Shown in pieces: positions 39,081 to 44,669 of a stretch of DNA of 64,000 nt. The notes beneath the pieces are model-generated. The model was not told the DNA's origin and made no database searches. It saw only the letters and a program-made list of their open reading frames with translations. The stretch comes from Mobula birostris (taxonomy: Eukaryota). Each line of letters begins with the position of its first letter. Positions within the stretch are counted from its first letter, which is position 1. Location: the NCBI RefSeq assembly GCF_030028105.1, contig NC_092391.1, forward strand, positions 47,217,223 through 47,281,222, read 5' to 3'. The position numbers and the translations under genes were made by a program.

Positions 39081-40937
39081 ATTTGGAATCTACATGTGTG
39101 CAGAACTGCCAGGGCTATGCATCATTGCTCGAAAGACCAGTGTTGCCCTTTATAGCTGCAGCTGAGTGTAGTTAAATAATACACTTCTAAAAATGAAGAC
39201 TACAGTTAAGTACTGTCTAATTCTGTAATAGTTTATGTAAGGACTCAGGAGAGAACTTGACATTAAATAATCAGCCTCATTACATTGAAAAGTCCCTGAC
39301 AAGCTCCGGTGCTGAAAGGACGTGATTGGAAACAATTTAAAAATAAGTAGCAGAATCTTTGGGAAGATTAAATTATTTTATAAATAGGATAGCCTACAAA
39401 ATACCCAAAAGTTACTGCCATTTTACTTAGAATAGATTCTCTCATATAATTGCAATGCAAGATCTCATATTAATAAATACTAATTTAATAAAGGGCATTT
39501 AATTTCAATCAAATAAAAACCATTTGTGTAAACCTCCCGCAAATGATTTTCTGTGAAAGGTATTTAGAGTGAGGTAATTTCATCTTGCCCTTGCTGTTTC
39601 AATAAAAATCTCCTACATAAAGCCTTTTATATGTCAGTATCAAAGCTGATATGCTTTAAAAATAGTTTGTTTATTTAGTTGCCATTTCTAGCTTTCATAT
39701 TGTTTAATTTCTTCATTATATTCTTAATGTCTCTCAGTTACTTGAGATGAAAGCCACATGCAGTTGCAAGATGACTAGAAAAGATAAAGACCATAAAAGC
39801 CTTTAAATTCCATTAAAACTTGGAGACTTCTGCTGTTGATTAACTTAGTCAAAACAAGTTACAAGTATATTCAGACAGAAACTTTATGCCTTTCTGTTCC
39901 ATTCAGCCTTTCAATCTGTCCTATATACCAAAGTGGTATCTGAAGCATTATTTCACCTATGATATAATATGCCCTGGGAGAGAAATTACCAGAGAAGGAC
40001 TGGGATGCCAGGTGTATCACTGGACTGGAGCCAGAATCAAAGGAGTTTCTGAAAAGAAAATGGGTTTATTGACACAGTAAGAAGACAGTTGGGTGGAGGA
40101 TTTCAATCATGAACCCTGCTGAGCGCAATAGGGGTTTTTTTGTCCCTCAAGGAAAGGGTATTTTCTGTTTGTGGTAAACGACTTGGACGAATACATGGAT
40201 GAGTGGGTTAGTAGGTTGACATAGTGTTATGATGAGCCAAAATAACAAATATCTATTGGTCAGCTGACAACCAATCCCAGGCTGAGTTTCACTGATTGGT
40301 CACTGTTCTGATCAAAGTCTCGAGTGTTCTTGGGTAAAAAATTTAGATAGTTGTGCTTTGAAATGTACTGTTGAGTTTTGAGATTCTTGTGGTTGAGTGG
40401 TTTTACTGAATAGTTTATTTCGAGTTCTGGCTTTTTCATATGCACATTCCCTCACCCTGCTATTCTCTGCCAACTGGATTCTGAAGCCCTGGTAGAGATC
40501 TTTGATAATATTATGCATTTCACTTTCATGCTAAGCCTGTGCGTAAAGTGGAGGAAATAACTCAACAGGCCGTGACATCAAAAAAGTGGCCATGTCCTCA
40601 GCACAGCCTCATGGTGTGAAGGCTGGAAACTCGTACAAGTTGTTCTGGGACCTACCCAAAGATGGTAACTGAAAGTAGGGTGGACACTAGTTTGAAAACA
40701 AGGAGGAAGAGGAATGCCACACCTAAATTTGCCAGAAGAGCAGACCCTGACCCTAGACTCGAAGTTTCTAGAAAGTGGGGTCCCAGGAGCTCTGAGCTCC
40801 ATACAGCAAATCAGCCGTTGGGGATGACCAGATAAAGGAAGAAGGGTAAAATAAGCTGCAAGTGCCAAGTGATGTAAGAGAGATCCTTGACCTCCAGCTT
40901 GAGGGAACTCGGAAAAAAAGATAAATTTGGAGAGTAG

Positions 40938-41634
40938 TGTAAGGGGGTTTCGATTTTTATGTTACTGCGAAGGCTAATTAAAATGGCGTTTTTGTTATGT
41001 TAATCTGGGGAATGCGGCTTTGTTGTGCTTTAACGCTGAGAAAGTTTGCGCTAGCAGCTTATTGTGGTTTAGAGGGTGATAAGAGGGTGCTATTAACCAA
41101 TTGGGATAGTTGTTATGGTTTTGGTGTATTTGAAGATACTGTATGCGCGGGGTTTTGGGGAGAAGGCGGGAGAGCGAGACAGAGGATGGACCAGGTGCTG
41201 TGAGTCCACTAACGGGGTCGGACCCCGAGCGGGACGTTCGACGAGGAGACGGAGACGGACTCGGACTCGTGTGGAGCGTCTGGTCGACCACCGTTGTTGG
41301 TCCCAGGCGGCCGGTCGAGGTGGTCCGAGGGGTCGCAGAGTGAAGAAGAAGGTCCTTGAGCTCCAACAGTTTTTGTGCACGAAGAGATTGAACTTTGATA
41401 AGTGTGGCGCCTTTTATTTTCCTTTTATATTTTATTCTCTTTTAATTATATAGTTCCAGTAATATCTATAAACTGTAAATCATTTAATTGCATCTGGTGT
41501 ATTGTCTGTTATTTGGGGGGGGGGGTACCTCACACAGCATCCACACAAACGAATTACCCAGTTTGGCGGGGCCGAGGCTGTTTCCCTAGACGACAGCGAG
41601 CCGAGCGACCCTGAGGGTGGCCAGGGGGGCTACA
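40938..41634 (+). mobile_element. Young solo LTR
   Basis: TGTA...TACA termini; 4-bp TSD GTAG at 40934-40937 and 41635-41638; CpG-rich; strand is tentative. Confidence 0.9.
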
Positions 41635-41646
41635 GTAGCAAACAGA

Positions 41647-42585
41647 CTACAGGAGGCCATACCTTCTTCAGATGTATATACTCTGGGCCATGCTAGTCAG
41701 TCTGGAGCCAGGCACAATGGATATTTTCCAGTCGGGACCCTTCAGCTCTTTTATCCTGACAATTTTGTTTTGGTCCAGAGTGAGGTGGGCAACAACTGGG
41801 CCAAAGACCACGACGCGGAGAATGCTGAGCTGATGGACTCCATCATGGATGTGGTACAGAAGGAGTTGGAGAGTTTCGGCTGCCTCCAGGGATTCCAGCT
41901 CACCCAGTCCCTGGGCAGGGGCATGGGCATGGGCTTGTGCACCCTCTTCTCATCAGCAAGATCTGCAAGGAATGCCCGGATCATATCACGAACACCTTCA
42001 GCGTGGTGCCTTCACCCCAAAGTCTCAGACACAGTGGTGGAGCCCTACTACCACCAGCTGTTGGAGAACACGGACAAAGCCATCTGCTTTGACAACAAGG
42101 CCCTCTACAATATCTGCTTCTGCACTCTCATGTTCCGCACCCCTTTCTATGGGGACCTCAACCACCTGATCTTGACAGCCACGAGCAGTGTCACCACCTG
42201 CCTCTACGTCCCCAGCTAGCTCAAAGCTGAACTGTGCAAGCTGGTGGTCAAATTGGTCTCCTTCCTCCATTTCCATTTCTTCATGTTGGGATTTGCCCTC
42301 CCTGACCGACTGGGGCAGCCGGCAGACCTGCACCCTGACAGTGCTTAAGCTGACCCAGCAGAAGTTTGACGCCAAGAACGTGAGCCCCGCACGGCCGCTA
42401 CCCGACTTTGGCGGTCATCCTCCGAGGCTGCACGTCCATGAGGAAGGTCGACGAGCAGATGCTCAAACAAGAGCAGAAGCTTCTTTGCAGACTGGATACC
42501 CCACAATTTCAAAATAGCTGTCTGCGATTTCCTGCCCTGGGGCCTCAAGATGTCCACCACCTTCATATGCAACTCCAGCATCAAA
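41647..42585 (+). pseudogene. TUBB: Beta-tubulin processed pseudogene fragment (about codons 50-375)
   Basis: [77 protein letters not shown]; several frameshifts; no intron at the usual vertebrate exon 3/4 junction (FVFG|QSG). Confidence 0.95.
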
Positions 42586-42586
42586 T

Positions 42587-44060
42587 GTATGCTCATTTTT
42601 GGGTGTAATCAGTCAGTATCCAGCATTCCTCCCAGCAATGCGCTGGTTGAGGGCGCCACTCAATGCCCTGCTCAATAAGGATACGACATGGAAATGGTCC
42701 AAACAATGCCAAGAGGCTTCTAATCAGGTGCAGAATATGCTGTCATCTGACCTTCCCTTGATGCATTTCAGCCCAGAGTTCCCAATTGCTGTCACAACAG
42801 ATGAGTCCAACTACTGGTGGGAGTTGTCATATCCCATATCTTCCCTGATGCCATGCATGCAGCTGGATCACTGGTTGCAGTAGAAATGAACTACTAACAA
42901 ATTGAGAAGGAAGACTTGGGAATCACCTTTGCTGTGAAGAAATTCCACAAGATCCTTAATGGCAGATGCTTCATTCTCCTTACTGATCACAAGTCACCAT
43001 TGTTCATCTTTGGTTCCAAGAAAGGCATTCTGGTGTATATAGCTAACTGTCTACAAAAGTGGGCGATAATGTTATTAGCCTATGATTTTGAAATCAAGTA
43101 CATATCAACCCAGGCACTTGCTCTCTCCAGACTTACTGATCAACAGGTTAATGAAGACGTAGTTGTGGCTGCAATTTCAGTTCACTGCATAGTCCACTGC
43201 ATTGTATCTGATGCTGTTGAAGGTCTTCAGGTTACTGTCAACAAGAACAGAGCAGAAATGACAACAGATTGGCTTCTTCAGTGTATCTCCAGATACCTCA
43301 GTGACAGATGACCAATCAGATTGAGGAAGATGTCTACCCATGCCATACCTTGCTCTCAAATGTGGACTCCTGCTTAATGTTTGGAGCCAAAATAGTGATT
43401 CCATGAATATTTCAACCAATTTCCACTGTGGTCAGCTTTACTTCAATTGAATGAAAACCCTGCACAGGCCTGGCATAAATGAAGATACCACACATGCATG
43501 CATACAGTGTACCTAGTGCTCTATGGCAACAAAGAATGCAGGTAGAGCCAATCCACAACCACGGCCTCAGGCTATCAAACCTTGGAGCTGCATACAAATT
43601 GATTCACTGGCCCACTTGACGTGTTCCCACTTTGTCTTGGTTGATGTCTATTCCAGGTGGCCAGAAATATCTATGAAGTCAACAATGACAGAGGCTACCA
43701 TTCAACAGCTACTGAAGATCTTCAGCTGCTAGGGGATGCCAGAAACACTTGCTTCTGATAACGGCAGCCAATTCAGTTCAAAGCAGTTTGCTACATTCTT
43801 CCAGAACATGGAATTATCCACATCCGCTCACCCCTGTATCATCCACAGTCCAGTGGCCAAGCAGAGAAGTTTGTGGATATCTTTAAACAACCATTTCTGA
43901 AATCAAGGGGGGAAGGAGTGTCAGCTGAGGCTCTCAACACATTTATGCCGTCATATCAAATTATGCCGCATCCAGGCCTCAAGGGGAAGTTCCCAACTGA
44001 AGGGTTTTTGGGAAGAAAACTGCACACAGTATTGGACGCAATGCTGCTACAGCGTCCAAC
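42587..44060 (+). pseudogene. Gypsy pol remnant: RT connection, RNase H and integrase
   Basis: [92 protein letters not shown]. Confidence 0.92.
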
Positions 44061-44669
44061 ATCTGTAACAGCAGGTGGTCAGGTGCACAAAGACAGCCGC
44101 ACAGACCTTGGTCGATGGGTGATGACTAAAAAAATGGGCGCCCTTCAATCCTTAAGAACAGAAATGCGAAGACATTTTTTTAGTCAGAGGGTGGTGAATC
44201 TATGGAATTTGTTGCCATGGGCAGCGGTGGAGGCCAAGTCATTGGGTGTATTGGGTGTAAGCCGGTGATCCAATCAAATTCAACCCTTGGCTCAAATCCT
44301 ACAGCTAATCACCTTCAAGAGGGACATGTTACAGCGAGCCAAAACAACCAAAATTTGCCAGCGTATCAAGCAGATAAATGGCAAATGTTCTGTTCTCTTT
44401 GATGAATCAACAAGCCTCAGCATTAAGACCGCCCTAATAGTTTATTTAATGGTCATCTGACTTTCACTCACTGGTCGTTGTTTCTATCAATATCTCAAAT
44501 GTTCTTGGGCAAAGCACCTAAGTAGATGTGCTTTGGAATCTACTCTTGAATTTTGCGGTTATTGGAGTTGCATGGTTTTACTGAATAACGGTTTACTTTG
44601 AGTTCCAGCTTTGTTCTATCTCCTGGCTTTGAGTCTCATCAGTAAATATAGGCAAAGGGAACGCAACAA

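Follow-up and report, generated by a model that had tools for sequence, protein, structure and literature searches.

The closest described counterparts of the locus reported here are gene copies flanked by the long terminal repeats (LTRs) of retrotransposons. Tan et al. (2016, PMC5131818) documented such cases from fly, fish, chicken and mouse: partial retrocopies between LTRs, with microsimilarity, and chimeras of several genes; in the main text of that paper, 'twin priming' and 'PBS' (primer binding site) occur 0 times, and 'invert' occurs once, within 'invertebrates'. Another counterpart is the twin priming of LINE-1 (long interspersed nuclear element 1, L1), whose signature is a 5′ inverted arm that starts beside the sense restart, with microhomology at both ends (PMC2912911). 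The normal strand-transfer scheme is given in PMC6894440, and asymmetric LTRs arising from misaligned reverse transcription have been described in human immunodeficiency virus type 1 (PMC9278108). The locus lies in a 64,000-nucleotide stretch of the Mobula birostris genome, hereafter the window (G000:C26:47217223-47281222 of a 4.0-Gb genome), where positions 40225-44668 are one dead copy of a Gypsy-type LTR retrotransposon. Fragments of two host messenger RNAs (mRNAs), CEP350 and beta-tubulin (TUBB), stand there in place of element sequence, and one of them is partly inverted. Protein relatives of a nearby repeat are found in Mobula, Hypanus and Hemitrygon records, which suggests a ray as host.

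In 1991, Pulsinelli and Temin reportedly obtained 5′ deletions, some with cellular sequence, when strong-stop DNA ended before or passed the PBS; theirs are said to have been single-round vector experiments, whereas the present locus is a germ-line fossil with a spliced antisense arm. As in the cases of Tan et al. (PMC5131818), a partial spliced mRNA replaces the internal open reading frames between two LTRs, the chimera has two or more parents, no poly(A), retrocopy target-site duplication (TSD) or L1 site is found, and both LTRs are present, the 5′ one being shortened here. Junction microsimilarity had a median of 6 bp in that study, against 9, 8 and 7 nt at three junctions of our locus. Unlike those cases, the present one has an antisense arm, a left break inside the 5′ LTR, no PBS and no secondary amplification. 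LTR-mediated multi-gene retroposition is thus known, and the new part, if our best reading holds, is the inverted, PBS-replacing arm, of which we found no report for an LTR element in the literature searched; older retrovirus work may cover it.

The element retains both outer ends (all features are on the plus strand unless stated). As the earlier note had claimed, two related LTRs are present, starting at 40225 and 44327 and 76% identical over 131 nt. The 5′ LTR (40225-40434) starts with TG and, by comparison with other LTRs, lacks its final ~55 nt and the PBS: matches to family LTRs end at query positions 228-244, a few at 213, and 29 natural LTRs extend about 55 nt further to ...ACAACA. The decayed pol (42573-44109) comprises the reverse transcriptase (RT) connection, RNase H and integrase (PF17919, PF17917 and rve, the rve match having E 8e-4, below the cut-off). 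Its identity to full copies is 73%, from internal position ~2070 onwards; fragments of RNase H and integrase thus lie 3′ of the tubulin, where the earlier note had placed pol. A 3′ internal end with the purine tract (44255-44326; 81% to internal 3997-4066 of copy L186) leads into a 3′ LTR (44327-44668) complete to ...CAACA, in which 44350-44447 are a foreign insert of 98 nt. The outer TG and CA are therefore in place, as is the purine tract; the inner U5 end and the PBS are absent. Since the 5′ LTR ends ~55 nt early and pol resumes at internal ~2070, the cargo replaces element sequence rather than being inserted into it: as read from the alignments, ~55 nt of LTR and ~2.07 kb of internal sequence are gone. 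The initial description of a tubulin in place of gag, protease and RT was right about a replacement that includes RT; it missed that the cargo is also CEP350 and that the U5 end and PBS were lost as well.

Tubulin had been taken as the sole cargo, which does not hold: positions 40426-41675 are spliced CEP350, the first ~110 nt of it inverted. The inverted arm (40426-40537, minus strand), spliced across a 14.6-kb intron, corresponds to G000:C16:99401832->791 joined to 99387230->168, and is the exact reverse complement of the exon-exon joint. The sense arm (40530-41675) crosses two exon joints. Its first part (40530-40937) holds three exons spliced across 16.8-kb and 4.5-kb introns, and the remainder of the last exon (41635-41675; 88% over 41 nt to C16:99423589-629) lies 3′ of a young solo LTR that splits the arm. 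This solo LTR (40938-41634, 697 nt, TG...CA, with a 4-bp GTAG duplication) belongs to another family and is a later insertion, 97-98% identical to 39 other scored copies among 4069 candidates; here and below, genome searches score only the best candidates. On 260 kb of C16, the cargo maps to four CEP350 exons. The identification is based on the DNA match to the C16 gene, which was named by 18 protein matches, 14 of them labelled CE350 or CEP350; comparing the decayed CEP350 frame with a bird protein by BLASTP gave no significant match (E 0.32). A search with 40500-40930 returned only the locus itself and two exons on C16 (3/3 candidates scored). A tubulin start codon at ~40872 was considered and rejected, that stretch being CEP350.

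The beta-tubulin retro-fragment (41672-42579) bears Pfam Tubulin and Tubulin_C matches and joins exon 3 to exon 4, in agreement with the earlier description of an intronless, same-sense tubulin; the sequence is real, its extent limited to about 41672-42579. It begins a few bases into exon 3 and presumably spans, in codon numbering, ~codon 58 to near codon 370. Neither a poly(A) nor a tubulin 3′ end is present at the junction with pol, as had been noticed. Among 11 beta-tubulin loci the closest is that on C34 (G000:C34:37121412-37122247), with 76% identity. The four-fold non-CpG K of the fragment is 0.32 to C34, 0.37 to C6 and 0.69 to C23, and the C34 gene is likely the parent on these comparisons. 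The 30 kb fetched for the C34 gene, interrupted by a 500-N gap, yielded no exon 3. Four beta-tubulin genes lie at G000:C26:44.70-46.22 Mb, 1-2.6 Mb from the window; as candidate parents they were rejected, with 66-67% identity versus 76% for C34. The fragment has seven indels, six of which are not multiples of three, and these frameshifts mean that the tubulin copy is dead. With six frameshifts, a non-degenerate K of 0.15 and a solo LTR inside the CEP350 part, the marks of a functional retrogene are missing. Together, CEP350 and tubulin contribute four splice joints, hence the templates of the cargo were RNA.

The joints between these pieces carry microhomology, whose null P values were computed from random register pairs. 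At junction 1 (40426-40434), LTR U5 and antisense CEP350 share 9 nt (P 8e-5). This 9-mer is the commonest at its register (7 of the 17 LTRs read), the others being mostly CpG variants; with the likely CpG ancestor, the match would be 6 plus 2. At junction 2 (40530-40537), the inversion point, the parent has an 8-nt match (P 1.7e-4), and the site of junction 1 lies 12 nt from the point where the sense arm restarts. Junction 3, between CEP350 and tubulin, would have about 4 nt by comparison with paralogues, a figure left unconfirmed as C34 exon 3 was not found. At junction 4 (42573-42579), the TUBB parent and pol share 7 nt (P 3.8e-4), which is the microhomology that the earlier note proposed to look for. 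The word, CTCCACC, occurs in C34 and, as the commonest variant, in 5 of the 13 pol copies read; it is absent from the C6 tubulin and survives in the window at 6/7 letters. Instead of the 2-nt gap at 42585 first described, the two sequences overlap by 7 nt at 42573-42579, and 'SSIK' is already pol.

Cargo and element are of similar age. As suggested earlier, tubulin decay was compared with LTR divergence: the non-degenerate non-CpG Kimura two-parameter distance (K2P) of TUBB is 0.149 (95% 0.113-0.190, 468 sites), and half of the LTR-pair divergence is 0.141 (0.097-0.195). The K2P of the window pol, against per-column commonest letters, is 0.125 (0.106-0.146, 1403 sites), the median of 34 siblings being 0.132, and K for CEP350 is 0.166 with the parent's branch included. 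The TUBB/pol divergence ratio is 1.19 (0.87-1.60), with a bootstrap P of 0.003 for a ratio <0.75. The cargo is not younger than the element.

The chimera appears only once. A search with the tubulin stretch returned the locus itself and 10 other tubulin loci (11/11 candidates scored), and in the search with the tubulin/pol junction, in which 40 of 125 candidates were scored, the remaining 39 are limited to the pol side, none covering the tubulin side. Upstream of pol, all of the 29 pol loci fetched carry ordinary RT sequence, bar one that is 5′-truncated. Within the limits of the tubulin, CEP350 and junction searches no second copy of the chimera was found. The idea of a once amplified tubulin-carrying family thus finds no support, no cargo or junction being shared with the other loci scored, and the proposed BLAST of the junction in this genome yielded no other copy among the 40 of 125 candidates scored.

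The reading that we consider probable is capture during Gypsy reverse transcription, with plus-strand DNA primed on CEP350 mRNA replacing the PBS transfer; one defective round of reverse transcription by the element itself likely produced the chimera. Minus-strand DNA, with integrase and RNase H already copied, would have switched to a co-packaged TUBB mRNA at the 7-nt match, and then from TUBB to CEP350 mRNA. Plus-strand strong-stop DNA, halting ~55 nt short of the end of the LTR, would have paired through up to 9 nt with that same CEP350 mRNA, immediately 5′ of the point where the minus strand had ended, and would from there have copied ~110 nt of the mRNA backwards across the splice joint. 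The two 3′ ends could then pair via the 8-nt match, which would substitute for the PBS-to-PBS transfer, and the product, retaining both outer LTR tips, would integrate. Lacking a PBS, such a product would be a dead end for further copying, in keeping with the single copy found. The plus-strand model requires that the main cargo read in the sense of the element and that the inverted arm begin inside the 5′ LTR, and both are the case; the short 5′ LTR, full 3′ LTR, missing PBS, sense cargo, equal age and lack of amplification are all predicted by it and seen. From the age match and from errors in sibling copies described below, we infer that the chimera formed inside a particle by the RT of an LTR element; the enzyme responsible and the order of steps are likewise inferred.

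Sibling copies carry RVT_1, RT_RNaseH, Integrase_H2C2 and rve in this order, of which the window has RNase H followed by rve; the assignment to Gypsy follows this pol domain order, which BEL/Pao shares. Family LTRs measure about 268 nt, the PBS matches transfer RNA (tRNA)-Ser(GCT), and some siblings have visible 5-bp TSDs (5/5 positions in L212, 4/5 in L183 and L206). Two of the 27 sibling 5′ ends read, L201 (G000:C13:39367635-657, minus strand) and L199 (C18:~74212570), follow tRNA-Ser(GCT) antisense beyond the usual 11-nt PBS: over the next 12 letters they match the tRNA at 10 and 9, versus 1-5 for the other 25. L201 and L199 thereafter pass into internal sequence lying 1.3 and 2.0 kb further downstream, the L199 joint using an 8-nt word common to tRNA and pol. 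In L232 (C8:152413485), of another LTR family, the LTR end is followed by TGG and 46 nt of tRNA-Ser(GCT) antisense, then by RT-like sequence. Across L201, L199 and L232, the tRNA antisense measures 20-46 nt. A search with the tRNA pattern gave 86 matches, of which 30 were fetched; ARAGORN called tRNA-Ser(GCT) in 7 of 9 tested, the other two being L201 and L232. CCA is added to the mature tRNA, and as the tRNA genes are without TGG, it is a mature tRNA that appears to have been copied in these run-through structures. Such structures form only during reverse transcription; faulty plus-strand transfer followed by integration therefore occurs in this family. L199 and L201 fit the pattern that Pulsinelli and Temin are said to have described.

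Other siblings are less telling. Among 40 loci (L173-L212), many have internal deletions of 0.3-2 kb with varied breakpoints, and L194 joins LTR position 65 to internal ~1086; the stretch that had made L194 a candidate for mRNA capture is a high-copy repeat (3718 candidates), and it was rejected. In L174, 190 nt at 4951-5131, between PBS and mid-RT, replace ~1.5 kb and found only themselves in DNA and protein searches and nothing in PDB. In L193 (G000:C11), ~200 nt right after the PBS are an antisense LINE 3′ end, from what we take, by a motif, to be a LINE with restriction-like endonuclease, joining internal ~537; as a capture this is ambiguous. L212, L198, L207 and L210 look like plain insertions.

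Several observations weigh against capture by the Gypsy element. The window retains only 5 of the 8 letters of junction 2 (three transitions, in a gap-free register). The age test is unable to separate events close in time. With K 0.28, the LTR pair is among the more divergent when set beside 16 sibling pairs (0.13-0.30), and it is no closer than unrelated copies (0.24-0.29); in this family, LTR identity cannot tell a true pair from two copies. The candidate TSD, CATAG / AAAAG, agrees at 3/5 positions. Large internal deletions are common in siblings, so that a later deletion is plausible, and the screen of 40 sibling loci for unique stretches did not demonstrate host mRNA in any of them. The geometry of a twin-primed inversion is present, with an inverted 5′ arm adjoining the sense restart and microhomology at both joints, and L1 inserts that patch breaks can be tail-less, with target DNA deleted, other RNAs and an inversion (PMC1920257). 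LTR-mediated capture, as the earlier note had it, is accordingly still the best reading and has gained the microhomology, the age match and the family evidence, with the reservation that LINE twin priming also makes an inverted arm. For the same reason LINE routes are excluded less cleanly than that note argued from the missing 3′ end and tail, both of which are indeed missing. The weights that we give to the readings are judgements and were not computed.

LINE-type routes, as a break patch or a twin-primed retrocopy, are taken together unlikely. In the first, an RNA-templated patch by a LINE or repair polymerase would have mended a double-strand break in an integrated Gypsy copy, the pol end priming on TUBB and the U5 end on CEP350. 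It would give the same anatomy, with the intervening sequence deleted. Of 21 endonuclease-independent L1 insertions, 18 had target deletions, with microhomology at both ends, other RNAs and one inversion (PMC1920257); our locus resembles them in being tail-less, in its target deletion, in its microhomology at both ends and in its foreign RNA pieces, and differs in that its cargo is without LINE sequence and as old as the host element. In cartilaginous fishes, retrocopies make up 5.4% of annotated loci and track LINE content (bioRxiv 10.64898/2026.06.26.734816). We nevertheless hold a break patch to be improbable: it has no need of equal age, of the element's sense or of an anchor in the 5′ LTR, all three of which are seen, and the siblings already carry plus-strand errors from reverse transcription.

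In the second, an ordinary LINE target-primed retrocopy, reading from TUBB to CEP350 with twin priming, would have landed in U5, and a later deletion at the tubulin-pol microhomology would have removed tail, TSD, PBS and RT. About 30% of L1 inserts are 5′-inverted with the same geometry (PMC2912911), internal deletions are frequent in the siblings, and the microhomology at the 5′ and inversion joints, like the small loss between the arms (12 nt here), recalls L1 twin priming. The marks of a LINE processed pseudogene (intact 3′ end, poly(A), TSD) are not found, which a later deletion may explain. Unlike in twin priming as described in that paper, the locus has no poly(A), TSD or nick motif, its 3′ end is primed internally on pol, and its setting is an LTR element. 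By the site rule given there, no TT/AAAA-type nick site lies within 20 nt before junction 1, and matches of 8-9 nt exceed the typical 2-5 bp. Requiring a two-mRNA chimera, an inversion, a hit in an LTR soon after integration and a second event, this route is quite improbable.

The flanks bear on the weakest rival. Decayed LINE RT-region sequence, which we take to be CR1-like, formed the insertion target on the left (40090-40224, by alignment to LINE copies), and the LINE RT region continues on the right (44669-44782; 32 matches among the fetched loci). In LINE copies the left flank aligns directly 5′ of the right-flank match, scoring higher than any of 100 shuffles in 12 of the 23 comparisons; plain BLAST gave no link between the two flanks. 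A later rearrangement, which would have combined the LTRs of two separate copies or brought in a copy of a chimeric retrocopy that arose at another place, would suit an LTR pair no closer than unrelated copies and an unconfirmed TSD, and is most improbable given that the flanks are colinear within one LINE region and that the tubulin and CEP350 searches found no source retrocopy.

Some further features stand apart from these questions. The family of the young solo LTR (4069 candidates) includes two-LTR elements of ~4.1 kb (L267-L269), in which a long open, coiled-coil-like frame is fused to a degenerate RT remnant; of 13 protein matches, 5 are labelled MYH16 or myosin heavy chain-like, and this may be an amplified family that once captured a host fragment. 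The 98-nt insert in the 3′ LTR (44350-44447) is 100% identical to 50120-50217 on the opposite strand, 5.7 kb away, and 95-96% identical to other copies, and looks like a recent, locally templated copy; its source is presumably a transposase-like repeat. Of the 86 exact tRNA-Ser(GCT) pattern matches, 73 are scattered along G000:C17:0.17-85 Mb, and at two tested C17 loci a tRNA-Pro(CGG) lies about 1 kb from the tRNA-Ser(GCT), which suggests a dispersed repeated tRNA unit. At 48286-48396, the window has a 53-nt inverted repeat with a 5-nt loop and TA-rich ends, like that of a miniature inverted-repeat transposable element.

As the locus is dead and single, its biological effect is probably nil. 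As a natural fossil resolved to the base, it shows how a vertebrate germ line can come by gene copies that are partial, shuffled and inverted. If capture by the Gypsy element is the right reading, an LTR element can produce the kind of inversion that is commonly attributed to LINE-1, and a host mRNA can substitute for the PBS in strand transfer. We lean slightly towards a broader proposal, that LTR retrotransposons have a twin priming of their own, in which plus-strand strong-stop DNA primes on a co-packaged host mRNA that serves, instead of the PBS, as the bridge for second-strand transfer. Were this true, it would yield integrable, PBS-less, one-off elements with an inverted spliced arm; a 5′ inversion in a retrocopy could then not be taken as proof of LINE activity, and this Gypsy family, with siblings that extend beyond the PBS into the primer tRNA as well, would preserve a record of plus-strand transfer errors made in nature.

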